Assembly: GCA_963704705.1 (NCBI GenBank)
Contig: OY969931.1
Location: 810,001 to 842,000 of the forward strand
Direction of reading: 5' to 3'
DNA length: 32,000 nt
From: an uncultured bacterium
Lineage (GTDB): Bacteria; Patescibacteriota; Gracilibacteria; UBA1369; PNNO01
Each line of letters begins with the position of its first letter. Position 1 is the stretch's first letter. The notes under the pieces are model-generated. The model ran no database searches, was not told where the DNA came from, and was given only the letters and a program-made list of their open reading frames with translations. Below are positions 165 through 14,401 of this stretch, piece by piece. Both the position numbers and the translations under genes were made by a program.

Positions 165-363
165 CAAATATAATAAATATAAAACATTTCATTTATATCA
201 CGAAAAACTTATATGCTCAATTTATTGAATGATTATTTAATATGTTCTTTTATTTTCTTTTTCAATTTCTGAACACTTCTATTATTTACTAATTTTTGAC
301 CTATACTAAGTAATTCATAATAAACAGCATCTTTCTCTGCAGAGCTTTTCTTTCGCGAATACT

Positions 364-891
364 TTATCCCAAAATTACAAACTTTGTTTCTTTGGATTTA
401 CGCGAAGTATCATAATGCGCTCCACCGAGTTTATTACAAACATATTTAATAACATCTTCAGGATAAATAATCTGACCATGAATAATAAAACTAGGTTGTT
501 TCAAATATTCACTAAGCTTTATAGGCCTATTTTTCTGTTTCTTACTTAGCTTATACATTTTTTTTGCTTCTTCATTTGAAGTTTCTTTATTTAATTCTTG
601 AAATTTGGAAATTTTAAGACCTTTATATTTTGCTCCACCAGCTTGATAAAAAGTAGTATTTCCAACGGAATCTAAACTATCTTTTCTATTAGAATCATGA
701 AGAAGAATCTTGATTTCAATATTCATCATTTTTGCCGCCTTCAATAATTTCCCATAAACAATTAAATTTCTAAGGACATTACTTGATCTTCGTAGAGAAT
801 CATCAGCAATAACTTGATTCCATTCTTTGGTGATATATTCAATATCCTCAGCAACAAGTTGCAACAAATCATTGTCCATATTTAAAACCAT
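364..891 (-). CDS. Hypothetical protein, 175 aa, no family recognised
   Basis: ORF track ATG..TAA. It sits directly downstream of the structured region/small ORF on the same strand and upstream of the partial gene at 1-164. Contains ...CNKLGGAHYDTSRK... but no motif I can assign. Confidence 0.6.
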   Translation of the reverse strand: MVLNMDNDLLQLVAEDIEYITKEWNQVIADDSLRRSSNVLRNLIVYGKLLKAAKMMNIEIKILLHDSNRKDSLDSVGNTTFYQAGGAKYKGLKISKFQELNKETSNEEAKKMYKLSKKQKNRPIKLSEYLKQPSFIIHGQIIYPEDVIKYVCNKLGGAHYDTSRKSKETKFVILG

Positions 892-915
892 ATATTTATA
901 CTTAATTTTACTAAA

Positions 916-1228
916 ACAGAGGCATAAGAGTTCACCTAACTAATATTAATTAGGTGTGGATTTCCGGTGTCGCGGTACACGAACCGTCTTTCCACTAGGC
1001 AAGCGTTTAGTATACGGTTTCACCGGTACTATTTTCTTACCTTTGGCTGTTTTAGCCATAGTAGAATGGGTTAAGAATAATAATGAGCGTAGGTTTAGTG
1101 TACGCCCAAGTTCAGCTACTACTTTTGTAATAACCAAACGGGGCGACTAAACTCTAGCCATTAATTCAACCCATTCTTTTGGGCTCAACCTTGCTTATGC
1201 CTCCATTTCAAAGAGCTAAAAATTAGCA
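916..1228 (-). ncRNA. Candidate structured RNA or long structured 5' leader (~290 nt), family unknown
   Basis: The complementary segments are fully nested (plus-strand coordinates). 916-928/1194-1206 gives 13 bp as minus-strand RNA, with core GAGGCATAAG/CTTATGCCTC. 1063-1072/1168-1177 is AGAATGGGTT/AACCCATTCT (10 bp). 1093-1099+1103-1107 pairs with 1141-1152 (7+5 bp, 3-nt bulge). Further pairs are 1044-1048/1054-1058, 964-969/1021-1026 (CCGGTG/CACCGG), 982-987/1014-1019, and the palindrome 933-944/945-956. The region is locally GC-richer than its flanks, and a canonical promoter lies immediately upstream. Confidence 0.4.
946..1059 (-). CDS. Possible small basic protein, 37 aa from the ATG (the track gives a 63-aa TTG-start version, 946..1137)
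   Basis: MAKTAKGKKIVPVKPYTKRLPSGKTVRVPRHRKSTPN. The ATG at 1059..1057 sits inside a 5-bp hairpin (1044-1048/1054-1058). No clear Shine-Dalgarno. It overlaps the structured-RNA candidate, so it may be either a real micro-protein or a chance ORF. Confidence 0.3.
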   Translation of the reverse strand: MAKTAKGKKIVPVKPYTKRLPSGKTVRVPRHRKSTPN

Positions 1229-1249
1229 CTTGGTATTATAGAGTGCTAA
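1223..1249. promoter_or_regulatory. 8-bp perfect inverted repeat bracketing the -10 box (candidate operator)
   Basis: TTAGCACT (1223-1230) and AGTGCTAA (1242-1249). The 11-nt spacer contains the TATAAT hexamer. Confidence 0.4.
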
Positions 1250-1262
1250 TTTAAAAAGTCAA
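1235..1262 (-). promoter_or_regulatory. Sigma70-type promoter TTGACT-N16-TATAAT reading toward 1228 and lower coordinates
   Basis: The minus strand has -35 TTGACT (1262..1257), a 16-nt spacer and -10 TATAAT (1240..1235). Confidence 0.5.
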
Positions 1263-1290
1263 TTATAATTTGTGTTAAAATAAATTATAA

Positions 1291-1380
1291 TTCGGCTATC
1301 CACCGGATCAACAAAAGCTCGCTACTGAAAACATATTGAAACAGGCAGAGCTACTTGCTGATGAATGGGTGGAGAAATAA
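1291..1380 (+). pseudogene. Start-less ORF fragment, possibly a relic of a type I specificity-subunit (HsdS)-like C-terminus
   Basis: Open frame without a Met: FGYPPDQQKLATENILKQAELLADEWVEK*. The P-P-x-x-Q-x-x-[LI]-A pattern loosely recalls the conserved P-P-L-x-E-Q-x-x-I motif of HsdS. Weak, memory-based. Confidence 0.15.
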
Positions 1381-1520
1381 ATAGAAGTTGCCAACGTTAA
1401 AAAAGCGATTCCAATAGAAATTATCGCAACAATCATAGATTTTTTACTAAAACTCTCGTGCTTCTTGTAATTCAATATATTCTAAATAATTAAAATACGC
1501 ACCCGGTGTTACACGGATAC

Positions 1521-1730
1521 CTATTTCACCATGGGTTTCATAAGGATTAACATCAAAAACATAAATGATAACGAAATTAAATCATCATAATCGTTTATTT
1601 TTTTATTTTTATCATAATTAAAACCTTTAGATATCAAATATTCATATAACTCATCAAATTTGATACCCTTATTTACATTTTCAACTGCATATTCTAAAAC
1701 TGTTATATAAAGGTCCTTGTCGTTTTTCAT
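1521..1730 (-). CDS. Hypothetical small protein, 69 aa
   Basis: ORF track. It starts 19 nt after the stop of the nuclease-like gene on the same strand. The N-terminal 45 aa look protein-like and the hydrophobic tail is uncertain. Confidence 0.4.
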   Translation of the reverse strand: MKNDKDLYITVLEYAVENVNKGIKFDELYEYLISKGFNYDKNKKINDYDDLISLSFMFLMLILMKPMVK

Positions 1731-1749
1731 TTTTCATTATTATTTATAT

Positions 1750-2673
1750 CTACTTCTCAAACTTTTCAAATACCTGCCTTATCAAAAACATGGCATAAGC
1801 AATATCATCATTTGAATGAACATCAAAAAGAGTAATGTGCTTATTATAATATTTATAGCTATTTTTCATATAACGTGCTCTTTTCTCGGGGTCTTTTAAA
1901 TCTTTGGGCTGAGTTCTATTTAAACCTACTTCAACTTTTGACTTATAAATTCTTAAGCTTACTACAACAGATTTCCCTATTTTATAACCTATATATTGCT
2001 TCTGTGGACTTTCTTCTATTGAAGGCCCTAAAGCAAACAACTCATTACTTAAAGCTTCATATAATTCACGTGATTCCTCCCACCCTTCCTTAAAATGATC
2101 TTCAACCGAGTATTTTTTAACTTCTTTGCTGACTTTTTCAATTGTTTTGTCTTTGGTTACTGTTTTTATTGATTCACTTGCCTCATGCGACTTAATTTGA
2201 TTGTAAAGAATTGTATTGTTGTCGTACTTTTTAACTTCCCACAGCTCAATTGGAAGATCTTTGAAATTTATTGAATTTCTTTGATAAGGCGTGAAACCGT
2301 TTGCAACAAAAAGAACTCTCGACTGAGACCAATCAACATCTTCTCTTTTTAAATTATCTTTCATCCGTTCGTTATATTCTAAAATAAAATCCGCCTTATT
2401 GTTTAACATCAGAGACAAATAAGCGAACCCCTGATCTACAACACTAAAACTGCGATCACGCTTATATTCAATTATTACAAAAGATTTAGTTTCAGTATCA
2501 AATGCAAGCGTATCAATGCGAAAATTCTGCAACTTAAATTCAGTTGCAATAAAATCCAGCCCAAAAACAGTATCAAGATTATCTTCAGTCAATTTTTGCA
2601 AATCTTTCTCCAACTTTATTTTTAATTCCTTTATTGAAATGAGTTTGTTTTTGTTGATTTGAAAAATTGGCAT
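1750..2673 (-). CDS. PD-(D/E)xK nuclease-fold protein (NucS/DUF91-like N-terminal part) with a DUF5655-like C-terminal domain
   Basis: N-terminal ...EKDLQKLTEDNLDTVFGLDFIATEFKLQNFRIDTLAFDTETKSFVIIEYKRD...VDQGFAYLSLM fits the D...(E/I)-E-x-K core typical of NucS/DUF91-type nucleases. C-terminal ...KQYIGYKIGKSVVVSLRIYKSKVEVGL... resembles DUF5655. Confidence 0.7.
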   Translation of the reverse strand: MPIFQINKNKLISIKELKIKLEKDLQKLTEDNLDTVFGLDFIATEFKLQNFRIDTLAFDTETKSFVIIEYKRDRSFSVVDQGFAYLSLMLNNKADFILEYNERMKDNLKREDVDWSQSRVLFVANGFTPYQRNSINFKDLPIELWEVKKYDNNTILYNQIKSHEASESIKTVTKDKTIEKVSKEVKKYSVEDHFKEGWEESRELYEALSNELFALGPSIEESPQKQYIGYKIGKSVVVSLRIYKSKVEVGLNRTQPKDLKDPEKRARYMKNSYKYYNKHITLFDVHSNDDIAYAMFLIRQVFEKFEK

Positions 2674-2756
2674 TTTAAAAATTTAATGATAAACATATAC
2701 TGATATAGCATAAAAAAGCCAAATTCTCAATAAAGATCAGGCTTGTCACCAAAATT

Positions 2757-2897
2757 TCACATACTCTCCCAAACCTCTATCGCATCATCATAATCAATGC
2801 CAAGTTCCTCAGACAATTCAATCACTTCTTCGGCATCTTCTTTGTCCAAATCATAATCATTCATAACGTTAATTGTTTCTTCTTCATCATCAATCAT
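2757..2897 (-). CDS. Possible 46-aa hyper-acidic protein (below the ORF-track size cutoff)
   Basis: Manual translation: MIDDEEETINVMNDYDLDKEDAEEVIELSEELGIDYDDAIEVWESM*. It has 20 D/E and 1 K. ATG at 2897..2895, TGA at 2759..2757, 84 nt upstream of the nuclease-like gene on the same strand. Confidence 0.4.
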   Translation of the reverse strand: MIDDEEETINVMNDYDLDKEDAEEVIELSEELGIDYDDAIEVWESM

Positions 2898-2954
2898 AAA
2901 AATTTGATATAATTACAGCATAATAATAATCAATATTAATCAAAATTTCCACTC

Positions 2955-3401
2955 ATGCACCTCCCCACCGCCATCAAACAGCTCTGCAAAATCACTGCGC
3001 AGCTAAAGAAGTCTCACAAGTCAAAGCACTTCACGCTTGATGGAAGGCTTGTTGGTGATCTTGGCGAGGTTTTGGCCGAGCAAAACTATAAGCTCACGCT
3101 GTTTGAGAAACTGGAAAAGGATTACGATGCAATTACATCCGATAACAAAAAGGTCCAGATAAAAGCCACTTTTAAGGATCATATCACCTACCCTGCCAAT
3201 TATACTCCTGAAATGCTTCTTGCTATTAAAATCAACCCGGACGGCACCTTTGAAGAGATATATAACGGTCCGGGCAAATACGTGGGAGAGCTGATCAAAG
3301 GGCGGAAAGCACCATATAACAGGCTGCACAGGCTTGCGGTGAAGAAACTGCGGGAGATAAATAAGCGGGTTAAGGGGAAAGAGAGGGTGGAGAGGAGATA
3401 A
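2955..3401 (+). CDS. Small PD-(D/E)xK-like protein (resembles DUF6998-type proteins), 148 aa
   Basis: ...FTLDGRLVGDLGEVLAEQNYKLTL...YDAITSDNKKVQIKATFKD... gives a D...Q-I-K core. The gene is visibly GC-richer than its neighbours. Confidence 0.6.
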   Translation: MHLPTAIKQLCKITAQLKKSHKSKHFTLDGRLVGDLGEVLAEQNYKLTLFEKLEKDYDAITSDNKKVQIKATFKDHITYPANYTPEMLLAIKINPDGTFEEIYNGPGKYVGELIKGRKAPYNRLHRLAVKKLREINKRVKGKERVERR

Positions 3402-3407
3402 ATCTTT

Positions 3408-3469
3408 CCGCTCCACTTCGCTCCAAAAGAGCCTCCGCTCGCTAACGCTCGCTGCGGCTCCGGAGGCTC
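3408..3469 (+). repeat. GC-rich intergenic repeat element, copy A (R1 + R2 motifs)
   Basis: R1 is CGCTCC-A-CTT-CGCTCC-AAAA (3409-3428). R2 is CTCGCTGCGGCTCCGG (3448-3463). A 9-bp stem GAGCCTCCG (3429-3437)/CGGAGGCTC (3461-3469) is also present. The element starts 7 nt after the stop of 2955..3401. Confidence 0.7.
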
Positions 3470-3505
3470 GAGAATGTTAATGATGACCGTTGACGTAATT
3501 CTAGC

Positions 3506-3511
3506 TATAAT
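3506..3511 (+). promoter_or_regulatory. Perfect TATAAT -10 box upstream of 3538..4380 (the -35 is only aTGACc)
   Basis: TATAAT at 3506-3511 and ATGACC at 3483-3488 with a 17-nt spacer. Confidence 0.3.
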
Positions 3512-3537
3512 GAAATTGAATCAATAACCACTATTAT

Positions 3538-4380
3538 ATGTCATTTTTTAAATCTTTGTTTGGCGGAAACCAAACTTCTCAACAAAACGATCAGGATCAG
3601 CTTGAGAACTATTTTAAAGAACTTCAGAAAGAGGTTACTAATGATTTAGAACAACTTTATGTTGATAGTTTAAAAGATATTAAAAAAGTTAAACCATTTT
3701 TTGATTTATTTAAAGTTACTGATTTTTATTTTGCTGGGTCTATAGAGGGTGATGTGGAAAAAATTGAAGATGGTTCAGTAAAATCAACTGAAAACACAAA
3801 ATTATCCTTTAATATGTTCCCTATTCAAGGCAAACCAATGTGTCCGTTTTTTACAAGTTACGAAAAAATGCAGGAATCACTTGGTAAAACCGGAACTCCA
3901 AATTATATAAAAATAAAATTTAAGGATTTCTACCATCCAAAAAGCAAAGATACTTTTATTATGAATCCGGGCTTTGTAATGGTTAAAATTTTCCCTCCTG
4001 AAACCATTATGGGAATTCTTGATGATAGTCTGATCAAATCAATGGCCCCAGAACTTGAAAAAGGCACTAAATTGCAAATCGGAATCCCCAAAGAGGTACC
4101 TGAAGAATTTTTTAAAGAACTTGTTCTTTATGCCTCAAAACAAAAAGCAATTAAAGAAATTTATTATGCACTTGTAATAGATTCTCAGCATGGTCAAAGA
4201 ATAGCTTTGGCAATTAAATTTGATGATGTTTCAGAAGGAACGAGTGTATATTTTGGTGATATTCAAGAGCTGGTTGAAAAAAATGATGTTGGCTATGGCG
4301 GATTTGTAGATATGGCTGAATTAAAAGATTCAAATCAATTGGCTCAGGGTATTAAAGAGTCCGGAGAAAGATTGTATTAA
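3538..4380 (+). CDS. SseB family protein (N- and C-terminal SseB-like regions), 280 aa
   Basis: ...GKPMCPFFTSYEKMQESL... matches the P-F-F-T-S-x-E motif of E. coli SseB (VIPFFTSLEALQ). The C-terminal ...AIKEIYYALVIDSQHGQRIALAIKFDD... parallels the SseB C-terminal region. Confidence 0.55.
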   Translation: MSFFKSLFGGNQTSQQNDQDQLENYFKELQKEVTNDLEQLYVDSLKDIKKVKPFFDLFKVTDFYFAGSIEGDVEKIEDGSVKSTENTKLSFNMFPIQGKPMCPFFTSYEKMQESLGKTGTPNYIKIKFKDFYHPKSKDTFIMNPGFVMVKIFPPETIMGILDDSLIKSMAPELEKGTKLQIGIPKEVPEEFFKELVLYASKQKAIKEIYYALVIDSQHGQRIALAIKFDDVSEGTSVYFGDIQELVEKNDVGYGGFVDMAELKDSNQLAQGIKESGERLY

Positions 4381-4455
4381 TTCTCACATCACCTTTGTTT
4401 AGAGAGTTTGTCGGTGTATCCTATGGAAAGCGATTTGATTATAGATCCTTAGCAG

Positions 4456-4490
4456 CCGTCCCGGGACGGAATTTTGTTTAAATTTTTTTA
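4456..4490 (+). terminator. Intrinsic terminator candidate: perfect 14-nt palindrome CCGTCCCGGGACGG followed by a T-rich tract
   Basis: CCGTCCCGGGACGG (4456-4469) followed by AATTTTGTTTAAATTTTTTT. It lies 76 nt downstream of the 3538..4380 stop. Confidence 0.55.
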
Positions 4491-4496
4491 GATTTT

Positions 4497-4518
4497 TTTA
4501 ATCAAAATTTAATAATTG
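4497..4518 (+). repeat. AT-rich conserved box TTTAATCAAAATTTAATAATTG (copy 1)
   Basis: 21/22 identical to 6651-6672. A shorter TTAATCAAAATTT is also present at about 2936-2949. In both full copies it follows a terminator hairpin and precedes a TTGAC -35-like box. Confidence 0.6.
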
Positions 4519-4534
4519 TCAGCTAATATTAATC

Positions 4535-4563
4535 TTGACCTCCAACTAATAACGCGATACAAT
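4535..4563 (+). promoter_or_regulatory. higBA promoter TTGACC-N17-TACAAT
   Basis: -35 at 4535-4540, a 17-nt spacer, -10 at 4558-4563. The ATG of higB is at 4593. Confidence 0.6.
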
Positions 4564-4584
4564 ATTAACGGAGGGCGTTAATAT
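4562..4584. promoter_or_regulatory. Perfect 9-bp inverted repeat (candidate HigA operator) overlapping the -10 end and the RBS
   Basis: ATATTAACG (4562-4570), GAGGG, then CGTTAATAT (4576-4584). The central GGAGGG doubles as a Shine-Dalgarno. Confidence 0.55.
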
Positions 4585-4592
4585 CCTGCCAG

Positions 4593-4874
4593 ATGATAAA
4601 AACCTTTAACTGCAAAGAGACTCAAAGGCTCTTCCACAGAATCAAATCACTCAAACTTCCCGGCGACATACAAAAAACAGCGCTGCGAAAGCTTAATATG
4701 ATACATGCTGCTGCAAACATAAATGACCTGCGCATTCCTCCATCGAACCATCTGGAATTGCTGAAAGGCGAACGCAAAGGAAAGCACAGCATAAGAATAA
4801 ATGATCAATGGCGGATAATATTCAATTGGCAGCAGGGCAACGCTTACGAAGTTGAAATAACCGATTACCACTAA
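4593..4874 (+). CDS. higB: Type II toxin HigB (RelE/ParE superfamily, 'plasmid maintenance system killer' type)
   Basis: MIKTFNCKETQRLF...LRIPPSNHLELLKGERKGKHSIRINDQWRIIFNWQQGNAYEVEITDYH is the canonical HigB-type layout and ending (..V.I.DYH). It is followed 5 nt later by higA. Confidence 0.9.
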   Translation: MIKTFNCKETQRLFHRIKSLKLPGDIQKTALRKLNMIHAAANINDLRIPPSNHLELLKGERKGKHSIRINDQWRIIFNWQQGNAYEVEITDYH

Positions 4875-4879
4875 TCAAT

Positions 4880-5191
4880 ATGACTAAAAGAGGACGGCTA
4901 AAACCCACACATCCCGGTGAAATTCTCATGGAGGAATTTCTAAAACCCATGAAGATTTCGCAATATCGTCTTGCAAAAGACATAAATGTGCCGCCAAGGC
5001 GCATAAATGAGATAGTCAAGGGCATCCGCTCAATAACTGCTGACACAGCTTTAAGATTTGCCAAGTTTTTCGGGAACTCACCTGAATTCTGGCTTAATCT
5101 TCAATCTCACTATGCATTAGAGGTCGAATCAGATAAATTAGAAAACATTCTTGAAAAAGAAGTAAAAGTGTTTTCTTTGAATACTGCATAA
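4880..5191 (+). CDS. higA: Antitoxin HigA (XRE-type HTH)
   Basis: HPGEILMEEFLKPMKISQYRLAKDINVPPRRINEIVKGIRSITADTALRFAKFFGNSPEFWLNLQSHYAL is the canonical HigA sequence pattern. Confidence 0.9.
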   Translation: MTKRGRLKPTHPGEILMEEFLKPMKISQYRLAKDINVPPRRINEIVKGIRSITADTALRFAKFFGNSPEFWLNLQSHYALEVESDKLENILEKEVKVFSLNTA

Positions 5192-5214
5192 AATAAACCC
5201 ATGAAAGACAAATT

Positions 5215-5303
5215 CGCTCCGCTTCGCTCCAAACGCTTCATGCGCTATCGCGCATTCCATAGATCCTTCGCTCGCCGCTAATCGCGGCTCGCTGCGGCTC
5301 CGG
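5215..5303 (+). repeat. GC-rich intergenic repeat element, copy B (R1 + hairpin + R2)
   Basis: R1 is CGCTCC-G-CTT-CGCTCC-AAACG (5215-5235). The hairpin is ATGCGC-tatc-GCGCAT (5240-5255). CATAGATCCTT is shared with 4439-4450. R2 is CTCGCTGCGGCTCCGG (5288-5303), identical to copy A. Confidence 0.7.
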
Positions 5304-5353
5304 TATTATGAGGGAAGGGATGAGGTTTTACATTAAAGAAAAAATGGATTTTA

Positions 5354-5362
5354 TGGTATAAT
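5354..5362 (+). promoter_or_regulatory. Extended -10 promoter element TGgTATAAT upstream of 5385..6473
   Basis: TG at 5354-5355 and TATAAT at 5357-5362, 22 nt before the ATG. No good -35. Confidence 0.35.
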
Positions 5363-5384
5363 AATATGATATATAAAACAAAAA

Positions 5385-6473
5385 ATGCCAGAAGTCCGTC
5401 AGACAAATCCCGAAGCAATAAAAGAACAATTAACTCAGCTTAAACCAAAACAAGCTGCCCGTATTTATAAAGGCACAAAAGAAGCAATTCAGAGAGTCGC
5501 TGATAAATTGCAACAAAACATTCCAAAAAATGATTTTTCTACAATAAAAACTGCTTTAGCTGCTTTAAAACCACAGGCCAGGAATTTTGAAACTTATATA
5601 AGAAGCAAATTGAACGGTTCAAATGAAACTATTCCGCTTTCAAGGATGCAGTTTTTAAGACGCTTAGTTCAATATAAAAATTCTCTCAAACAAAAATATC
5701 TTCCTTACAGATTGGCTGAAGAAAAACGCTTAAAAGAATCCTATAAAGAAACTTCAATTGAAAATATCAAATTCAGAAAATGGCAAAAATCAGACCTGGC
5801 GGCATTCTCGCAATTTTTAAAACAAAATGCCGGCGACAACAAAACTTTTCAGGCATACATACAAAAAAATCTTCACGTATGGAATCCAAAAGGTAATCCA
5901 AAATTATATTATCAACAGCAATGCGTTGAGATGTCTTTAATACTATTAATTGAGTTTTGTTATAAAAATCACATTGATCTGGCTTTACCGGCATCAAACA
6001 GCTATCTTAAAATGTCAAAATATAAAACACTCGAAAGTTTTATGAAAAATTTGTACCCCAAGCTTTCTGCATCGCATTTATACTCAGGTGCCGGCGGACT
6101 TGTAACAGAAATCCGGGAAAAAGATTTAAAAGCCGGAGATTGGATATCAATTAAACGTCCTCACGGCGGCTATCATGCATTAATCGTTACCGGAAATTAC
6201 GGCCAAGGACAATTGAGCGTAATGGCAGGCAGCCAAATGAATAAAGATTTCAGAAAATCAGCAGAAGTAAGAGAAGAAGTTGAAGAAATTTATCCAAAAG
6301 GATTTGTTAAAATCCAGTCAAAAGCCAAGCCAAATCAGGTAAAGATGCGTTATGGAGGATATGCCATTGATCCAATGGTAAATAGAGGTAAGGTTGAACA
6401 GAAAAATGGCACATATAAATTTTACAGATTGAATGTGGACAGGATGAATCAGGTTTTAAGCAGAATTAAATAG
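5385..6473 (+). CDS. Hypothetical protein, 362 aa, with a C-terminal NlpC/P60-like (papain-fold) Cys/His pattern
   Basis: ...YYQQQCVEMSLILLIEFCYKNHIDLALP... and ...LKAGDWISIKRPHGGYHALIVTG... match the NlpC/P60 layout (catalytic C, then G-D-hydrophobic...H-hydrophobic-hydrophobic). No signal peptide seen. Assignment is tentative. Confidence 0.6.
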   Translation: MPEVRQTNPEAIKEQLTQLKPKQAARIYKGTKEAIQRVADKLQQNIPKNDFSTIKTALAALKPQARNFETYIRSKLNGSNETIPLSRMQFLRRLVQYKNSLKQKYLPYRLAEEKRLKESYKETSIENIKFRKWQKSDLAAFSQFLKQNAGDNKTFQAYIQKNLHVWNPKGNPKLYYQQQCVEMSLILLIEFCYKNHIDLALPASNSYLKMSKYKTLESFMKNLYPKLSASHLYSGAGGLVTEIREKDLKAGDWISIKRPHGGYHALIVTGNYGQGQLSVMAGSQMNKDFRKSAEVREEVEEIYPKGFVKIQSKAKPNQVKMRYGGYAIDPMVNRGKVEQKNGTYKFYRLNVDRMNQVLSRIK

Positions 6474-6476
6474 ATT

Positions 6477-6526
6477 TGCTGCGGCTCTACTCCGCTTCGC
6501 TCCAGACGTTTCCTCCCGAGAGGAGA
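6477..6526 (+). repeat. GC-rich intergenic repeat element, copy C (R2 then R1, plus a small hairpin)
   Basis: TTGCTGCGGCTCT (6477-6489) followed by CTCCGCTTCGCTCCAGACG (6490-6508). A 7-bp stem TTTCCTC-ccga-GAGGAGA spans 6509-6526. The element starts 4 nt after the stop of 5385..6473. Confidence 0.65.
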
Positions 6527-6578
6527 TTTGACTTAGTGCGATTTTTCTTGCGCAGTGGGTATACCTGGCCCGGGCTGG
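6525..6578 (+). repeat. Intergenic repeat R3, copy a
   Basis: GATTTGAC...GATTTTTCTTGCGCAGTGGGTATACC-TGG-CCCGGG-CTGG. The 17-nt run GATTTTTCTTGCGCAGT (6540-6556) is identical to 10300-10316. Confidence 0.7.
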
Positions 6579-6620
6579 CATATTTGACCTCGATCCATTT
6601 TAATTGCGCTGTATGCGAAA

Positions 6621-6643
6621 GTGGTCACGTGACCACTTTTTTT
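6621..6643. terminator. Intrinsic terminator: perfect 16-nt palindrome GTGGTCACGTGACCAC + T7, between convergent genes
   Basis: GTGGTCACGTGACCAC (6621-6636) followed by TTTTTTT (6637-6643), preceded by GCGAAA. Confidence 0.7.
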
Positions 6644-6650
6644 AGAAAAA

Positions 6651-6672
6651 TTTAATCAAAATTTAATGATTG
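6651..6672 (+). repeat. AT-rich conserved box TTTAATCAAAATTTAATGATTG (copy 2)
   Basis: See 4497-4518. It is followed by TTGACA (6685-6690), a 16-nt spacer and TAACTT (6707-6712), a promoter-like arrangement with no plus-strand gene behind it. Confidence 0.6.
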
Positions 6673-6747
6673 GTTGATATACTTTTGACACCTAGGCAAA
6701 TATTATTAACTTGAATGGGATTGAGAAAAATCCCGGAAACAGCTTTT

Positions 6748-7863
6748 TTACTGCCTCGGCACATGACTTCCGCCACTGCTCATATTTAATATCTTAGCTA
6801 AAATTTCTTTCAAATTCGGTGTTTCGCCTCTTTCTTTTACAGCTTTCACTTCAACTTCAAATGAAACCATTACACTGTGGAATCCCTGCCTTAAAGCATT
6901 TTCATGAAAACTTCTTGGTTTCTCAGGTGAAACAACCTGATTCAAATCTTCAAATGAATGCTCGCGATTAGTTGCAAGGTATTTTTTTACATCATCAAGG
7001 CTATTTAAATTATTTCTCTTAATTAATTCCGGAAGTTCTTTTGAATATCGACCATTGGTTAAGTGATCAACGAGAACTTTTTCAACAAAATATGCCCGGA
7101 GTTCGCCATGCAAATATTGATCTCTGTTTGGTTTACGCGGTTCAAGCTTAAAAACCATGTCATGTAAATGCGATAGTTCATGTGTCTGAAAAATCCCTGC
7201 CCAGGTTTCTGTTACTTCAAATGGTCTGATTAAAAGAGCAACTATTCCATCAGGACTGCTGGTATCAATCACCAAAGCTTCCTTTTGAGTATGGTAACTT
7301 GCGCTTTCCGGAGTCAAAACAACCATCCAGCCTCCACTTTTATGACCGGTTTCAAGAGAAATAAATGCACGTCCTTTAAGTTCCGCCCATCTTACCATTT
7401 TTGTTCTAAAGGCTTTAATCGCGCTGAGCATTTGCATTTGTGGAGTTTTGGCATCTGCAAGCGCCAACGGCACATCTTTAAAATCCTTTTCAAAACCTCT
7501 GTCAAGAATTCCACGCATTTGTGCTCCTGTTGGGTGATTTTCAGGACTTTGAAAAATATTTGGAATTTGTTCTGAAGGATAATTCGATGTGTGGGGATTT
7601 TCCGGTGATTTTTTATCAGGTAAGCAGCCTAATTTTTCTTTATTTGAAACTCCTAAATATGCTCCTGCAGCCATAGTTGCAGTTACAGCAAGCGCTTGTT
7701 GCAAAAACTTTCTGCGTTCAAGCAAAATTTCTTCAGCTGCGCGTTTATCTTTTTTATCTCTTCCTGTGAGCTTTTGTTTTTCTTCAAGTGTTGATACGGT
7801 TTTTTTGGCTTCAGCATATTCACCGGCACCAAATAACTTATCTAAACCTTTTCTAAATCCCAT
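6748..7863 (-). CDS. Putative secreted zinc metalloprotease-like protein (HExxH) with a twin-arginine signal motif
   Basis: The Tat-like ...ERRKFLQQALAVTATMAAGAYLG... begins at residue 50, and THELSHLHD supplies HExxH. An alternative TTG start at 7725 would give MLERRKFL... (326 aa). Confidence 0.65.
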   Translation of the reverse strand: MGFRKGLDKLFGAGEYAEAKKTVSTLEEKQKLTGRDKKDKRAAEEILLERRKFLQQALAVTATMAAGAYLGVSNKEKLGCLPDKKSPENPHTSNYPSEQIPNIFQSPENHPTGAQMRGILDRGFEKDFKDVPLALADAKTPQMQMLSAIKAFRTKMVRWAELKGRAFISLETGHKSGGWMVVLTPESASYHTQKEALVIDTSSPDGIVALLIRPFEVTETWAGIFQTHELSHLHDMVFKLEPRKPNRDQYLHGELRAYFVEKVLVDHLTNGRYSKELPELIKRNNLNSLDDVKKYLATNREHSFEDLNQVVSPEKPRSFHENALRQGFHSVMVSFEVEVKAVKERGETPNLKEILAKILNMSSGGSHVPRQ

Positions 7864-7888
7864 AATAATAATTTAAAAGTAAGAGGAT

Positions 7889-7917
7889 ATTAAAACATTT
7901 ATATACAAAAAAGTCAA
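7889..7917 (-). promoter_or_regulatory. Possible promoter TTGACT-N17-TTTAAT for 6748..7863
   Basis: The minus strand has -35 TTGACT (7917..7912) and -10 TTTAAT (7894..7889). The -10 is weak. Confidence 0.3.
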
Positions 7918-7964
7918 GTATATTAAAAATCCCGGGAATTATATTTTATTTTCGCTCCGTTCCG

Positions 7965-10184
7965 CTAGTCTATCTTCACAAACATCAATCCCCCTGCAAA
8001 ATCAGTGAAGTCTTTTTCTGCGCCAACTATGTATTTAATTGGTGCTAAGTAATCCATAAATTCAGTGTATCCGGCTTTTTCATCTGCCGGCATTGGCTGT
8101 GTTTTTTCGATTTCCGCAACTATTGAGTCCACATATCCTAAAATATTCTCAACTGATAAAAAGCTAAATGCATTTGGATAACCTGATAAATAACTCATTC
8201 CAACTTTTACATCCGCATTTTCACTAACTGACGCTACTTTGCCGTAAACATTGTTATATCCAGAATAAAGAGCCAACGTTACGTAATTATCACTGTTTAT
8301 TCCGTAATATAATTCAATTGGATCAGTAAATGTGTCGCCGAACATCGCAAGGTCACCAAGTTCAGAAGGAGGAAGCATACTAAAATCAATTTTAATTCTG
8401 TTCATTGATTTTCCGTCTACCATTGCCGTATCTTTAACGATCACATTAGGATAATCAGTGTTTTCCGCTTTAATCTGATCAATCATTTCAACAATCAACG
8501 CATCTAAATTATCAATATCCTGCTGCGCCTGATCAGTGTATCCGGTTGCGTCAAAATATAATGAAATTCCAGGGATAATAGTCCCGGTATCCTGCAATAC
8601 AGATGCATAACCCTGATTAAGCCAATCCCCTCCTGAAACAATCACTCCTGATTCCTTAAGGCCGGCAAGAAGATCTGCGCCTGTTGCATCCAAAATATTA
8701 ATCAAACCATAACTTTCTCCGTACGATAAAAGGTTATTACCCGGAAGATTCTTATACATATATGGAGCCTTGCCGTTAAGGCTGTTTAATCCATCTACTC
8801 TGTAATGAACATTAAGTCCGCTAATGCTTGGAATTACTGCAAAAACACCTGACCCTTCAACCGCTGATCCAAAATAAATCATACCAACATTAGGAGTAGG
8901 AACACTTGCTATCAAATCATTGTAACTTTTGTTTTGTAAAAGGTTTTCACCGCCATTTTTAATTTTCTGAAGCGCTAAATATCGGTCTCCGAAAGAAGGC
9001 CATGCCAATAATGAGTCGTCTGTATATGCTAAATATAAATGCTGTTTTTCATTTGTGAATGTTTTGAATCCAAATAACGATGCCCTTGTGTAACCATTTA
9101 ACGCAGACATTTTATTAAACACATTTGTTAATTTTGCAGAGTCATCAACGGTAATTAACAAAGTCTGCCTCGGAACAAAACTGCTTGATTCACCCACTGC
9201 GTACATAACTTTAAATCCGTCACCAAATGAAGGCAGTAAATCACTATCGTAACTTAATCCAACTTTCGAAAGATCCGTTGCGAAATCTTTTAATATATCT
9301 TTAACAAAACCATCAACGTTACCTGCCGGTGATTTGCTTAAAAATCCGTTTAAAAGAGTTGTTTGATTTTTATCCTGCGTATCTAAAACCGCAAGTAACG
9401 ACGTATCATAATCAAAAAATTCTTCTTGTTCTAAATTGTAGGTTTTAAGAGGAGTTTTAATTACATTTTGAGGGCCGTAAGCGTCGTCATAACTTGTTAA
9501 ATTGTTATCCTGAAGGGTTTTTAATCTGTACAACATTTCTGCGACTTCTTCTCTGGTCATTGATTCGCCCGGCAAGTAATTCATTGAATTATTATCAAAT
9601 GAATACTGTATATGTTTTAGCCCAACCAAAAAATTACCAAGCGCGTAACTTACATATTGATAATACCACTCGCTTGAAGGTACATCAGAGTAATCTTCAA
9701 CCGGTGTATTTGTTGGATTGATATTTGGGAATTCAAGTAGCGCCATTTTTAAAGCCTCTGCCCTGTTTACGCACTGTGCCGGTTTAAATGTGCCGTCTTC
9801 GTAACCTCTAATAGTGTTTCGTTCACGTGCTTTTTTCACAAAAGGCGCATACCACTGGTCTGCGTATGTATCTGCGAAAAGCTGTGCCTGCGAATCTGCA
9901 GTATCAATCTGCAAAACATTATAAAGCATTTTTATAATTTCAGCTCTTTTAACACAATCGGTTTCTCTAAGGTCACCGGTTGTACCATCGCCTGTTAAAA
10001 TATTGTTTTCAAAAGCCCATGCCATTGCTGTGTCGTAATTGCTCATGTACTTAGACATTATAGGGCTGCTTAAAGGGTTGTTTAGAGTTGAAGGCTGATC
10101 TTCCGGGCTGATCAATTGCGCGCTTGCTGTAGAACTTGTTAGGAACAGTGCAAATGTTAGAAGGATTGCTGCGAACTTTTTCAT
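7965..10184 (-). CDS. Secreted surface protein with three N-terminal SLH (S-layer homology) domains and a large uncharacterised C-terminal region, 739 aa
   Basis: Signal peptide MKKFAAILLTFALFLTSSTASA. SLH-type segments include ...FADTYADQWYAPFVKKARERNTIRGYEDGTFKPAQCVNRAEALKMAL... and ...YSDVPSSEWYYQYVSYAL...MTREEVAEMLYRL. Confidence 0.8.
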   Translation of the reverse strand: MKKFAAILLTFALFLTSSTASAQLISPEDQPSTLNNPLSSPIMSKYMSNYDTAMAWAFENNILTGDGTTGDLRETDCVKRAEIIKMLYNVLQIDTADSQAQLFADTYADQWYAPFVKKARERNTIRGYEDGTFKPAQCVNRAEALKMALLEFPNINPTNTPVEDYSDVPSSEWYYQYVSYALGNFLVGLKHIQYSFDNNSMNYLPGESMTREEVAEMLYRLKTLQDNNLTSYDDAYGPQNVIKTPLKTYNLEQEEFFDYDTSLLAVLDTQDKNQTTLLNGFLSKSPAGNVDGFVKDILKDFATDLSKVGLSYDSDLLPSFGDGFKVMYAVGESSSFVPRQTLLITVDDSAKLTNVFNKMSALNGYTRASLFGFKTFTNEKQHLYLAYTDDSLLAWPSFGDRYLALQKIKNGGENLLQNKSYNDLIASVPTPNVGMIYFGSAVEGSGVFAVIPSISGLNVHYRVDGLNSLNGKAPYMYKNLPGNNLLSYGESYGLINILDATGADLLAGLKESGVIVSGGDWLNQGYASVLQDTGTIIPGISLYFDATGYTDQAQQDIDNLDALIVEMIDQIKAENTDYPNVIVKDTAMVDGKSMNRIKIDFSMLPPSELGDLAMFGDTFTDPIELYYGINSDNYVTLALYSGYNNVYGKVASVSENADVKVGMSYLSGYPNAFSFLSVENILGYVDSIVAEIEKTQPMPADEKAGYTEFMDYLAPIKYIVGAEKDFTDFAGGLMFVKID

Positions 10185-10271
10185 TTGGGGTGGGTTAAAT
10201 TTGATAATTTGCTATACCAATATACCGTTTTTTTTTAGAAATGTGAATTTTTGGTGCGCCATAGGTTTACT

Positions 10272-10283
10272 ATGCCCGGGCAT
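10272..10283. repeat. CCCGGG-centred palindrome ATGCCCGGGCAT
   Basis: Perfect 12-nt palindrome. It belongs to the family listed in the findings. Confidence 0.6.
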
Positions 10284-10285
10284 GG

Positions 10286-10351
10286 GATTTGACACCGGAG
10301 ATTTTTCTTGCGCAGTAGATATACCGATCCCGGGATCTCGTCACATGACGA
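10286..10351 (+). repeat. Intergenic repeat R3, copy b, plus a GTCACATGAC hairpin
   Basis: GATTTGAC...GATTTTTCTTGCGCAGTAGATATACC-GATCCCGGGATC (palindrome 10326-10337), then TCGTCACATGACGA (10338-10351) + CTTTTCTT. Compare 6525-6643. Confidence 0.7.
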
Positions 10352-10357
10352 CTTTTC

Positions 10358-10386
10358 TTGACTTACCACTATTTATGCAGTATAGT
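10358..10386 (+). promoter_or_regulatory. Promoter TTGACT-N17-TATAGT upstream of 10440..10652
   Basis: -35 at 10358-10363 and -10 at 10381-10386. Confidence 0.5.
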
Positions 10387-10424
10387 TACATTCTTGAAGT
10401 CGAGTCAGACAAAAAAGAGATATT

Positions 10425-10655
10425 TAACCCAATTCAACAATGAACGATAAAAAGCCAAATATGATCCAAAGTGTAAACGACTTAACCACTAAGCTAAAAA
10501 TGAAATTTGATAAACAACATTATGGCAAATGGGTGGCAATCAAAAACAAGAAAATACTTATGTCCAATACGGATCTTAAAATACTTATGGCTGAAGTGAA
10601 GGAAGTTGATAAAAGCGAAAATATTAATTATATGCTTGTGCCAATGGCTTAGGTT
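10425..10655 (+). repeat. 231-bp direct repeat, copy 1 (covers gene 10440..10652 plus 15 nt upstream)
   Basis: My manual alignment to 11138-11368 gives 12 substitutions in the 213-nt coding part, 6 synonymous and 6 non-synonymous, with the non-synonymous ones clustered at the termini. Confidence 0.85.
10440..10652 (+). CDS. Small protein, 70 aa, DUF5678-like (copy 1 of a duplicated gene)
   Basis: MNDKKPNMIQSVNDLTTKLKMKFDKQHYGKWVAIKNKKILMSNTDLKILMAEVKEVDKSENINYMLVP. The H-Y-G-K-W-V-A-I...(short beta-rich) layout recalls DUF5678/antitoxin-like small proteins. It has a paralog at 11153..11365. Confidence 0.7.
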   Translation: MNDKKPNMIQSVNDLTTKLKMKFDKQHYGKWVAIKNKKILMSNTDLKILMAEVKEVDKSENINYMLVPMA

Positions 10656-10664
10656 TTTAACTTA

Positions 10665-10732
10665 CGCTCACTCCATAGAGCCACCGCATTAAGGCTGCGG
10701 CTCTGACTTGGCGAACTTCGATACCGGGATCG
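10665..10732 (+). repeat. GC-rich intergenic repeat element, copy D (degenerate R1, R2, CGAT-ACCGGG-ATCG hairpin)
   Basis: CGCTCACTCCATAGAGCC (10665-10682), GGCTGCGGCTCTGAC (10693-10707), and TTCGATACCGGGATCGG, which is near-identical to 30725-30741. Confidence 0.55.
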
Positions 10733-10768
10733 GGAAAAATTCTTCCGCAACCTCTGCACAACCAACTG

Positions 10769-10797
10769 TTGACAATCGTGCTATTTGTTGTTAAAGT
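10769..10797 (+). promoter_or_regulatory. Promoter-like TTGACA-N17-TAAAGT upstream of the 104-aa ORF
   Basis: -35 at 10769-10774 and -10 at 10792-10797. If it is used, the ATG at 10824 is the likely start. Confidence 0.35.
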
Positions 10798-10799
10798 AT

Positions 10800-11099
10800 A
10801 TGACTAATAATAACCTACAAATAATGGATAAAGAAAAAACAAGAATCTATGAACATCAATGTAGACTGCTCGATAAGCAATGGCAGATATTAAGAAATTT
10901 CTGCATGGGTCCTGATAATATTGAGTCGATCATTGCGCTATTAATTGATCTTAAAAATATCAATGATGATGAAATAGAAGCTGTTTCATACTTTGCTTCA
11001 AAAATTAGAGAAGGAAAAATTTGTAAGCCAAAATCATCCGCAGAAGAAATTATTAGCGACATTAAAGAGGTAGTTGGTAAATTAGATAGTTTTAAATAA
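10800..11099 (+). CDS. Hypothetical helical protein (about 91-104 aa, start ambiguous: TTG 10785, ATG 10800, ATG 10824)
   Basis: The ORF track gives 10785..11099. No family recognised. It is sandwiched between the two copies of the duplicated 70-aa gene. Confidence 0.5.
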   Translation: MTNNNLQIMDKEKTRIYEHQCRLLDKQWQILRNFCMGPDNIESIIALLIDLKNINDDEIEAVSYFASKIREGKICKPKSSAEEIISDIKEVVGKLDSFK

Positions 11100-11137
11100 G
11101 AAAAATAATATTTGAAAAATTTGGCTCGCCAAATCGA

Positions 11138-11368
11138 TAACCAAATTCAACCATGAAGAATAAAAAGCAAAATATGATCCAAAGTGTAAACGACCTAACC
11201 ACTAAGCTAAAAATGAAGTTTGCTAAACAACATTATGGCAAATGGGTGGCAATCAAAAACAAAAAAATACTCATGTCCAATACGGATCTTAAAATACTTA
11301 TGGCTGAAGTGAAGGAGGTTGATAAAAGCGAAAATATTAATTACATGCTTGTGCCAACGGATTAGGTT
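11138..11368 (+). repeat. 231-bp direct repeat, copy 2
   Basis: See 10425-10655. Confidence 0.85.
11153..11365 (+). CDS. Small protein, 70 aa, DUF5678-like (copy 2)
   Basis: MKNKKQNMIQSVNDLTTKLKMKFAKQHYGKWVAIKNKKILMSNTDLKILMAEVKEVDKSENINYMLVPTD. It is followed by the R1-type CCTCGCTCCAAACC (11372-11385). Confidence 0.7.
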   Translation: MKNKKQNMIQSVNDLTTKLKMKFAKQHYGKWVAIKNKKILMSNTDLKILMAEVKEVDKSENINYMLVPTD

Positions 11369-11451
11369 GGGCCTCGCTCCAAACCTTTACCAATTTTAAT
11401 ATTGGTGTAACATAATGACAGTGTTTTTTTGCAGTAATAATATTTTTTCTT

Positions 11452-13326
11452 TTGAAATCAAAATTTTTATCTAAAAAATCAAACATCGAAGCGATATTTT
11501 ATTCATTGGTGTTTTTTTTACCTTTAATTATAAATCCTTTTGGCCAGACTCCTTATGAAATACCGAAAGTTGCCATTTTAATAATATTTGTAAGCCTTGG
11601 ATTGGTGCTTACATATATTTATTCTGTTTTCATAAAGAAAGAACTTTTTGTAAATAAATTTGCATTAATCGCAGTATCGCTCTGGTTTGGATCAGCATTA
11701 ATTTCAACACTTCTTTCAAAAGCTCCTCTGGAAAGTTTTTGGGGAAGTTATGAGCGCATGCAGGGCTTATTGCAATTAATATATTATTTGGTGCATTTTA
11801 TTTTATGTATACATTTAATTCAAAATGAGAAATTTAAAAAATTCGCATTTTTATTCACTAATATTGCGGGCGGTATTATTTCGATTTATGCGATATTACA
11901 ATATTTTTCTATCGATCCTCTCCAAATAGGAAACATCGATATTTTCAGCGGAAGAACATATTCAACAATCGGCCAACCGAACATGCTTGCCCAATGGCTG
12001 ATATTCCCCTTTTTTATAAATTTATTTTCAATACTTAAAGAAAAAAAGAAATTAATATACGGTATTTTGCTCGGCATTAATTTAGCAGCGCTTATAACCA
12101 CATTCAGCAAAGCTGCATTTATTGGGATATTTATAGCTTTATTGCTGTTTTTCATTCATTCAATTGCAACAAAAAAAATAAACAAAAAATTAAAAGTATT
12201 AGTAATATTCAGTTTATTATTATTTATTATAATAACAGCTGGAACAATACTTAAAACAGGCACACGCTCATCATTCTCCCGAATTGTACTTTGGGAAGAA
12301 TCTTTACCCTTAGTCCAGAATAACTATATTTTTGGGAATGGCACTGAAACATATTATCAAAACGTACAAAAAGTTCTTACATCCGAAATCTATGAAACTG
12401 AAAATCTTTACGGATTCCCAACAAGAGTTCACTCGGAAGCTTATCAAATCCTCATAGATCAGGGATTTTTCGGTTTAATTCAATATTTATTTTTGTTAGG
12501 ATTTATTGGTTATATTTATTTTAAAAAAGAGATTAAAGAAAAGCATATATTAATAGCTTTTTATTCGATTGTAGCCAGTTATATTGCGGTTCAATTCAGT
12601 TTTTCATTTTCAGCGCAAATTATTTTTCTGGCATTTTGTTTAGCGATTTTAATTAACCAATATCTGCCTATCACAAAATTAAAATTCAAAAAACGTGCAA
12701 AATGGCTAAAATTAGGTATTTTAATACCTTTGATATTATTTTTTGGATGGTCAGCAAAATATGCCTACGGTCTGATTATGTCGGATTATTATTATCAACA
12801 AACTTTATCAAGCTATTTTGATGACAAAAAAGTTTCATGGGAATTTGCAAAGAATACAATCAATTCAAATCCGCACAGCACATATTATTATTCAAAAATA
12901 ATAGGTTTATTTGCTAAAAATAATTATCAGGAAATTCCAAACTACCTTGATGCCCTGGGTATAATGAGCGGAAACAGTTTTCAGTATTACATAGCTGCTG
13001 CACAGCTTTATGCTGCACAAGACAATTTTGAAAAAACAAATAACGCATTTAATCAGGCTACTGAATTAGCTCCTTCTTGGACTTTGGGATGGCAGCAATG
13101 GGGTGATTTTCTTGCGGAAAATAACAAAATATATGAAGCGATTGATAAATATGAGCACGTACTGAATCTTGCGCCTGCATATTTATGGGAACCGCAAAAT
13201 GAAAAGAAAAGAATTTTTAAAAAAACAACACCTTTGTTAGACTTTTTAGTGCAAAGACTTCGAAGTCTTTATATTGAAACCGGCCAAAATGATAAAGCCG
13301 ATGAATTACTTTTAATTCTAAATTAA
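11452..13326 (+). CDS. O-antigen ligase-like (Wzy_C/O-antigen polymerase family) polytopic membrane protein with C-terminal TPR repeats
   Basis: More than 10 predicted TM segments. The central ...LAALITTFSKAAFIGIFIALLLFF... and loop ...RVHSEAYQILIDQGFFGL... are typical of the family. The C-terminal ...AAAQLYAAQDNFEKTNNAFNQATELAP...YEAIDKYEHVLNLAP is TPR-like. The TTG start is uncertain. Confidence 0.75.
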   Translation: MKSKFLSKKSNIEAIFYSLVFFLPLIINPFGQTPYEIPKVAILIIFVSLGLVLTYIYSVFIKKELFVNKFALIAVSLWFGSALISTLLSKAPLESFWGSYERMQGLLQLIYYLVHFILCIHLIQNEKFKKFAFLFTNIAGGIISIYAILQYFSIDPLQIGNIDIFSGRTYSTIGQPNMLAQWLIFPFFINLFSILKEKKKLIYGILLGINLAALITTFSKAAFIGIFIALLLFFIHSIATKKINKKLKVLVIFSLLLFIIITAGTILKTGTRSSFSRIVLWEESLPLVQNNYIFGNGTETYYQNVQKVLTSEIYETENLYGFPTRVHSEAYQILIDQGFFGLIQYLFLLGFIGYIYFKKEIKEKHILIAFYSIVASYIAVQFSFSFSAQIIFLAFCLAILINQYLPITKLKFKKRAKWLKLGILIPLILFFGWSAKYAYGLIMSDYYYQQTLSSYFDDKKVSWEFAKNTINSNPHSTYYYSKIIGLFAKNNYQEIPNYLDALGIMSGNSFQYYIAAAQLYAAQDNFEKTNNAFNQATELAPSWTLGWQQWGDFLAENNKIYEAIDKYEHVLNLAPAYLWEPQNEKKRIFKKTTPLLDFLVQRLRSLYIETGQNDKADELLLILN

Positions 13327-13358
13327 AAGGGCTGCTCCGTTTTGGAACAACCCTTTTT
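13327..13358. terminator. Bidirectional terminator hairpin between convergent genes
   Basis: AAGGGCTGCTCC-gtttt-GGAACAACCCTT (13327-13355), flanked by an A-run upstream and TTTTT downstream. Confidence 0.6.
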
Positions 13359-13374
13359 AAAATGTTGATTTAAA

Positions 13375-14340: not shown

Positions 14341-14401
14341 GTTGTTTATTTTTAATTTTAATTCCTTTTATTTTACACTAAAACTGAACTTTTTTCAAGT
14401 G

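Follow-up and report, generated by a model that had tools for sequence, protein, structure and literature searches.

The sequence considered here is a 32,000-nt stretch of contig OY969931.1 (assembly GCA_963704705.1, positions 810,001 to 842,000 of the forward strand), hereafter called the window, from an uncultured bacterium of the candidate phyla radiation (CPR) with a Peregrinibacteria-type genome of 1.37 Mb and 35.5% GC. Positions 1-14400 of the window, located 3′ of a tRNA-Lys(ctt) gene, represent a variable island, and beyond this tRNA gene follow glycosyltransferase, radA-like, and tatD genes which are syntenic in congeners. Between the island genes, short GC-rich modules stand out against the AT-rich background. 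A first-pass annotation had taken these modules as a sign of cassette insertion or shuffling or, alternatively, as dispersed sites resembling repetitive extragenic palindromic (REP) sequences, and their architecture, distribution, and likely origin are the subject of this study.

Five modules (A to E) share a single orientation and start 3-21 nt past the stop codons of plus-strand genes, these being DUF6998 (2955-3401), higBA (higA), the gene of a 362-aa protein (5385-6473), and two DUF5678-like genes (10440-10652 and 11153-11365). Motif counts against shuffled sequences confirmed that such recurring, uniformly oriented GC-rich modules after stops are real and non-random: TTCGCTCC occurs five times in the window, always on the plus strand (0.74 expected), and GCTGCGGCTC four times (0.02 expected), with no shuffle reaching either count. 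Four of the five genome-wide occurrences of GCTGCGGCTC fall inside the window, defining it as a local signature. The generalization to every plus-strand accessory gene holds for the five genes named above and fails for 3538-4380, followed by a different, CCCGGG-centred hairpin, and for 10785-11099, after which no module was noted. Of the motifs described in the first-pass annotation, R2 was stated to be identical in A and B, in line with a 17-mer common to both copies, and CATAGATCCTT, assigned to several modules, has an exact match in B only. The element at 11372-11385 (E) is present as an 11-14-nt fragment, and the one at 6477-6526 (C) is really a small complete copy plus the 5′-arm fragment of another copy (Table 1). 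In total, six copies or fragments lie within 8.5 kb, the window thereby hosting 6 of ~36 copies in 0.6% of the genome.

Table 1. Repeat copies, island genes, and related features (window positions unless marked as genome coordinates).
Feature	Position	Strand	Composition	Context	Profile match (genome coordinates)
Copy A, complete	3406-3469	-	9-bp stem GAGCCTCCG/CGGAGGCTC, then TTTTGGAGCG, tail AAGTGGAGCGGAAAG	Antisense to DUF6998 (stop 3399-3401) and SseB-like gene	
Copy B, composite	5213-5303	-	Long hairpin, ATGGAATG, second hairpin ATGCGC/GCGCAT, tail TTTGGAGCGAAGCGGAGCGAA	Antisense to higBA and 362-aa gene	815266-815234
Hairpin 5′-arm fragment	6478-6489	-	GCTGCGGCTCTA on plus strand	4 nt past stop of 5385-6473	
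Copy C/X, small complete	6490-6527	-	Hairpin TCCTC/GAGGA, then GTCTGGAGCGAAGCGGAG	Downstream of minus-strand operon 10184-6748	
Tail-only fragment	7951-7964	-	CGGAACGGAGCGAA on minus strand	Abuts stop of SLH-domain gene 7965-10184 (-); sense	
Copy D	10665-10704	-	Hairpin AGAGCCGC/GCGGTGGCTCT, then ATGGAGTGAGCG	Antisense to DUF5678 gene and 104-aa gene	820683-820661
Fragment E	11372-11385	-	Core TTTGGAGCGAGG alone left; 70% repeat identity, weak by itself	6 nt past stop of second DUF5678 copy	
DUF6998 gene	2955-3401	+	43-53% GC	Rare, 2/301 genomes of the class	
Promoter and SseB-like gene (3538-4380)	3483-4380	+	Promoter ATGACC-17-TATAAT	Not found in four congeners	
higBA unit	4456-5191	+	CCCGGG-centred hairpin, T-tract, AT-rich upstream box, promoter, higB, higA		
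Promoter-bearing unit, 362-aa gene (5385-6473)	5304-6476	+	No Pfam/PADLOC hit	Not found in four congeners	
Composite intergenic module, ~165 nt	6511-6689	+	CCCGGG-type hairpins, GGTCACGTGACC hairpin, T-tract, AT-rich box TTTAATCAAAATTTAAT, promoter		
371-aa protein (function unassigned) and 739-aa SLH-domain protein genes	6748-10184	-		Between two direct copies of the composite module's GATTTTTCTTGCGCAGT core	
Two DUF5678-like genes, 94% identical, flanking 104-aa gene (10785-11099)	10425-11368	+	Promoters 10358-10386 and 10769-10797		
tRNA-Lys(ctt)	14402-14478	-		3′ end without repeat inside the island	
RAYT-like genes (see text)	Genome: 35114-35452 (-), 85532-85879 (+), 1267038-1267382 (-), 1347549-1347896 (+)			Host contig G000:C1	

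A listing of post-tRNA sequences revealed the reverse complement of R1 plus R2 right after the encoded CCA of ~12 tRNA genes and also after several stop codons. R1 and R2, which had been proposed as two building blocks, are correct as sequences and not separate entities, being the two ends of one GC-rich hairpin element of ~40-90 nt. On its own strand, this element is composed of a hairpin (C)AGAGC..GCTCT (sometimes AGACC..GGTCT), a WTGGAGYG core, an optional second small hairpin, and a GAGCGRAGCG tail. R1 corresponds to tail plus core, R2 to the hairpin 5′ arm, and CATAGATCCTT (the CATAGA motif) to the reverse complement of the hairpin 3′ arm plus ATGG. Since R1, R2, and CATAGATCCTT are the reverse complements of tail and core, 5′ arm, and 3′ arm respectively, the element strand of the window copies is the minus strand. 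Folding yielded stems of 9 bp in A and ~10 bp in D, and compensated arm changes were observed among 43 copies from four genomes (AGAGC/GCTCT, AGACC/GGTCT, GAGCC/GGCTC, ACAGC/GCTGT, AGTGC/GCACT, GACAC/GTGTC). We take the hairpin as real, yet this is no proof of an RNA function. A 10-nt direct repeat of GCTGCGGCTC (5291-5300 and 6478-6487) flanks the promoter and 362-aa gene unit at 5304-6476. The assumption that copy B lacks a 5′ arm and was split by this unit with target duplication was dropped; a split is possible but unneeded because B has its own arm, GGAGCC.

Following a strand-symmetric word-density scan, a profile was seeded with 22 copies, deliberately leaving out those of the window. 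It gave 32 genome matches at E≤1, substantiating the idea of dispersed REP-like sites, with two inside the window (B and D) and 30 outside. The motifs are hence not confined to this locus by local duplication, nor are they randomly placed relative to genes: all 30 outside matches are co-oriented with the host transcript, nine being tRNA-associated, seven abutting stop codons (-4 to +5 nt), and 14 lying in frame in 11 genes. Outside the window, intergenic copies begin 0-5 nt after the tRNA CCA or the stop codon. The hosts of in-frame copies include ribosomal protein S3 and several Lys/Ala/Glu-rich, disordered protein tails.

The window copies deviate from this uniform picture. B and D, both profile matches, are antisense to the two genes flanking them, and judged by eye the same applies to A and E; copy C is compatible with sense orientation because it is located downstream of the minus-strand operon 10184-6748. 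That all four antisense copies are found among the 6 window copies of 36 corresponds to a hypergeometric probability of ~3e-4, a value that is indicative only, neighbouring copies not being independent. Considering all genomes studied, antisense copies were seen solely in accessory arrays, in three genomes. Replication direction was considered as the determinant of orientation and rejected, as it fails to account for the orientation rule: the chromosome shows only a weak GC skew and gene-strand bias, with plus and minus copies interleaved along it.

Extension of the search to related genomes detected the element in three of the four congeners. Counts of a core 12-mer were 9, 8, 5, 4, and 0 in the host (G000) and the four congeners (G001 to G004), with 0 for all reversed-pattern controls. 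The congener matches are genuine copies located after tRNA-Leu, tRNA-Met, and tRNA-Ile, after stops, and inside genes, in the latter case with the reading frame open on the element strand. A wider spread in the order was rejected, as 20 of 20 inspected matches from other genera or families were chance similarities in coding DNA. Among the next four family-level matches inspected, three were again due to chance and the fourth proved to be a copy in G008, which belongs to the same family but a different genus, where it occupies the orthologous site of the ribosomal-protein operon. Scanning metagenomes with a gapped R1..R2 pattern returned six chance matches alone, all in contigs of 53-57% GC, and exact-protein look-ups for strain variants had nothing on record.

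The S3 tail illustrates the variability of the element within the genus. It carries a full copy in the host, a copy at another position in G003, and a remnant of the tail part in G002, and it is free of copies in G004 as well as in eight genomes from other genera. This pattern indicates that copies come and go among members of the genus, even in frame within an essential gene, from which we conclude that the element is or was mobile. In-frame gain and loss of such repeats is a hallmark of Rickettsia palindromic elements (RPEs). Relatives of the antisense window copies were likewise detected: a homologue of A, 82% identical and with the compensated stem GACAC/GTGTC, at G004:C42:403-477, and a B-like copy at G001:C41:1158-1226. 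Both copies are antisense and immediately precede the same PD-(D/E)XK-like gene but follow different genes, the homology being that of the element alone.

Integrase and transposase genes were neither reported nor seen within the window, and elsewhere in the genome four transposases of the Y1 type and two tyrosine recombinases are encoded. The former are PF01797 genes scoring over the cut-off and lacking TnpB; their best NCBIfam match is NF047646, the REP-associated tyrosine transposase (RAYT), at 67-79 bits against a cut-off of 80 (E 1e-18 to 1e-22). Each of these RAYT-like genes is preceded by hairpin repeats of its own, none by the element described here. GTAG-type REP clusters with TAGACCAGGTCTG occur at 35.05-35.6, 563.8, 1126.85, and 1218.3 kb, the first preceding a RAYT-like gene, and the genome thus seems to carry a classical-looking REP/RAYT system. 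The TAGACCAGGTCTG clusters have AGACC/GGTCT arms, identical to the minority hairpin arm found in the element, which we regard as a lead and not as evidence. A long tandem array of ATCACCGAGTGAT hairpins was noticed downstream of the RAYT-like gene at 85.9 kb.

The two tyrosine recombinases, at 132.7 and 1182.4 kb, are the only ones of the genome and far from the window. An integron-like array extends over 1,183,975-1,208,463, ~340 kb downstream, and contains attC-like sites with GCCTAACA ... CGTTRNRYG boxes and paired arms. A profile derived from 10 of these attC sites recovered ~33 sites in the array and no window match at E≤10, in agreement with the first-pass statement that integron-type core sites are missing from the window. 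The window copies are therefore not integron attC sites, and membership in a cluster of attC sites lacking integron-integrases (CALIN) was rejected as well, the copies having neither R″/R′ boxes nor L″/L′ pairing. On the attC bottom strands, GAGCG-type words are found 54 times compared with 5 on the top strand, giving the same strand relation to open reading frames (ORFs) as in the window, and two attC sites hold a bipartite GGAGCG..GGAGCGGAA motif. This likeness of attC and element is a resemblance, not membership. The attC bottom strands furthermore show a one-sided ~28-nt bulge GTTCCGCTCC..TCGCTMCRCCCA beside an inner hairpin.

The gene content of the island provides the context of these copies. 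According to its sequence, it appears as a hypervariable assembly of autonomous promoter-to-stop gene units with defence and toxin-antitoxin functions. The highest-scoring promoter matches were located upstream of the SseB-like gene, higB, the DUF5678 gene, and the 104-aa gene. The left part of the island looks defence-related because 1750-2673 (-) matches the PADLOC candidate defence model PDC-S18 (E 2e-110) and DUF6998 weakly matches a type II methyl-directed restriction enzyme model (E 5e-5). In the 362-aa protein, a C-terminal Cys..His arrangement (QQQCVEM ... GGYHALIV) is by eye reminiscent of papain-like or NlpC-type hydrolases. In G004:C42, conservation of the higBA unit (81-84% identity) extends from the hairpin as far as the stop and ends there, with no element following. 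A second type of module reported at 4456-4563 and 6621-6712 (hairpin, T-tract, TTTAATCAAAATTTAAT, -35 box) could be verified and has further copies elsewhere in the genome. The ~165-nt composite module recurs at 794822, 798709, and 801472 of the genome and, in part, at window 10246-10360, resulting in 4-5 repeats within 794-821 kb; the plus-strand promoter of the window module is directed into a minus-strand gene at its 3′ end.

In the matching flanks of G001 and G004, no island genes were found, the sole exceptions, both in G001, being a DUF5678 gene and a fragment of higA. There, a ~400-bp unit (promoter, higA 3′ fragment, DUF5678 gene) on G001:C1 (L012) is enclosed by ~28-nt direct repeats GAGGAGGCGGTRGAGGAGATAATG at 7741-7800 and 8187-8240, reminiscent of an insertion footprint or of a duplicated gene end. 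Serial integration at tRNA-Lys was rejected as the origin of the island since the tRNA 3′ end is not repeated within it and the tRNA-Lys flanks in G001, G002, and G004 are free of copies. At a different place of the genome (354495-355560, 399610-399690), repeats of the final 10-20 nt of tRNA-Gly(tcc) occur downstream of it, at 354717 and 355556, which would fit a tandem island insertion at that tRNA.

Taken together, we consider it probable that the window modules represent complete or fragmentary copies of a REP/RPE-like hairpin repeat specific to this lineage, mobile and locally accumulated as passengers in an island of autonomous units, and not the sites of a dedicated cassette recombinase. 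The resemblance to REP and RPE repeats follows from the sense orientation at tRNA ends, at stops, and in frame, the presence in congeners, and the insertion polymorphism in S3. The likeliest route of spread would be a single-stranded hairpin mobilized in trans, with the four RAYT-like HUH/Y1 transposases of the genome as candidate enzymes. Within the island, copies may have propagated locally by duplication and recombination, giving rise to the common GCTGCGGCTC signature, and could serve there as passengers and short homology patches.

Several observations weigh against this explanation. Folding energies of the window copies are no better than those of shuffles (z -0.1 to -2.1, the latter for D), and the arm-pairing test is lenient in that 49% of shuffles also find a 5-bp partner. 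No mobilizing enzyme is associated with the element, and none of the RAYT genes has a copy beside it. A passenger status does not by itself account for the strict sense orientation of all other copies and thereby leaves the antisense placement of A, B, D, and E unexplained. Finally, the 10-nt repeat around the unit at 5304-6476 and the A-type copies at variable congener junctions would equally fit a role as recombination sites.

Such a role for the copies as recombination joints appears unlikely, also in its explicit form, in which the antisense copies with their core GCTGCGGCTC serve as joints for the insertion, exchange, or loss of promoter-bearing units, be it site-specific or facilitated by homology, making the island a non-integron cassette array. 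All copies point the same way within junctions of unrelated accessory units, their orientation relative to the ORFs matching that of the GAGCG words on the attC bottom strand (54 vs. 5). An exact 10-nt repeat brackets a promoter-plus-gene unit, with a truncated hairpin arm 4 nt from the stop of this gene, and the A- and B-type copies of G004 and G001 sit between different genes with homology confined to the element; the restriction of antisense copies to accessory arrays in three genomes fits as well. However, the 10-nt repeat is explicable as two arms of the same subfamily, one of them truncated, and the features of attC sites are missing, namely R″/R′ boxes, L″/L′ pairing, and any match to the attC profile, with both tyrosine recombinases being distant. 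The higBA unit (G004) and the DUF5678 gene (G001) occur without the element, most junctions in those arrays are devoid of a copy, and so are the syntenic islands by tRNA-Lys in G001 and G004. The copies do not constitute obligatory borders of the gene units. The cassette insertion or shuffling of the first-pass annotation, which can draw on the hypervariable island, the self-contained units, and the A homologue between other genes, is for the same reasons weakly supported. A combination of both ideas, in which a REP/RPE-like repeat was co-opted as a unit-swapping joint, with the antisense GCTGCGGCTC copies as anchors and kin to the attC central module, would create a second, integrase-independent cassette system; we deem this rather unlikely, too.

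A function of the copies as RNA or transcription signals seems quite improbable to us. They would then act as 3′-end or stabilizing hairpins in sense orientation and, within the window, as insulators keeping antisense transcription out of the plus-strand accessory genes, or as C-rich Rho-loading stretches directly behind stop codons. A short T-run comes after the hairpin (TCTTTTGG in A), and a canonical terminator located after tRNA-Ser(gct) consists of the same AGAGCGAG..CGAGCTCT hairpin and a full T-tract. The strict co-orientation with transcription outside the window with its start 0-5 nt past CCA or stop, the orthologously placed copy in another genus (L051), and the location of copy C downstream of a minus-strand operon can be read in the same sense. 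However, several sense copies lie between co-transcribed ribosomal-protein genes or in coding regions, where a terminator would be harmful, the family is limited to one genus, and copies differ between congeners at the same gene. A consensus terminator scan flagged no copy, in Rfam only tRNA passed the gathering threshold with the permissive matches in 2900-11500 not overlapping the elements, and upstream of A, B, and D no convincing hidden minus-strand gene or ORF was found. The view that the modules are purely local, arising by simple duplication or chance GC-rich similarity and belonging to no wider family, is already refuted for all practical purposes: the exact R2 10-mer and the 17-mer of A and B are indeed nearly confined to the locus, but a profile built without the window copies finds them together with 30 more, homologues exist in congeners, and shuffles never reach the observed counts.

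To our knowledge, small dispersed repeats have hardly been described in CPR/Patescibacteria, the genomes of which are regarded as streamlined. A full-text literature search on palindromic repeats in Peregrinibacteria returned no article dealing with such repeats according to title or abstract. A genus-restricted repeat located at tRNAs, at stops, and in frame within genes of ribosomal and surface proteins is a sign of active selfish or semi-selfish DNA in CPR, offering markers for strain typing as well as a source of disordered protein tails. In terms of annotation, care should be taken not to label its copies as attC sites, terminators, or small-RNA genes. Only the antisense cluster within the defence/toxin-antitoxin island could hint at something further, namely a shuffling of gene units guided by the repeat.

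Among known systems, RPEs, reportedly described by Ogata et al. in 2000, share with the element the character of short palindromic repeats in the small AT-rich genome of a host-dependent bacterium, being both intergenic and in frame and varying in presence between relatives. Correspondingly, the 14 in-gene copies lie on the coding strand, presence in the S3 tail varies, and the frames of the congener copies are open. In contrast to RPEs, the element is shorter (40-90 vs. roughly 100-150 nt), GC-rich, co-oriented outside the window, and begins at the tRNA CCA or the stop codon. As host phylum and base composition differ, the likeness is a functional analogy only. With REP sequences and bacterial interspersed mosaic elements (BIMEs), the element shares a GC-rich, imperfectly palindromic build, a position for the most part immediately 3′ of genes, occasional clustering, and a genome with RAYT-like genes. 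It differs from them by the lack of a 5′ GTAG (the context being (C/T)AGAGC), a long non-palindromic tail, its occurrence also in coding regions, and RAYT genes that are not flanked by it; the extragenic placement typical of REPs applies to 16 of the 30 copies, located 3′ of tRNAs or genes, the other 14 being in frame in coding regions. A miniature inverted-repeat transposable element (MITE) was rejected since the element is asymmetric (hairpin plus tail) and no flanking duplication is seen at copies after CCA or stops, the sole flanking repeat being the 10-mer around the unit 5304-6476, itself element sequence.

The GC clusters of yeast mitochondria are GC-rich palindromic mobile elements of a very AT-rich genome, located mostly downstream of genes and occasionally in ORFs. 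The element resembles them in its GC-rich palindromes scattered over an AT-rich genome, downstream of genes and in ORFs; the yeast clusters, however, are organellar, and there is no sequence relationship. attC sites and CALINs finally correspond to the window copies as hairpin sites in one orientation after the stops of small accessory or toxin-antitoxin genes, the element strand being equivalent to the attC bottom strand and GAGCG words being present in both. As to the regular one-orientation spacing of attC sites, the window copies are co-oriented, the junctions after 3538-4380 and 10785-11099 have no copy, and the arrays of G004 and G001 contain one copy each. In contrast to integron cassettes, the window units carry their own promoters and have no integrase nearby, and the element also follows tRNAs and sits in housekeeping genes.

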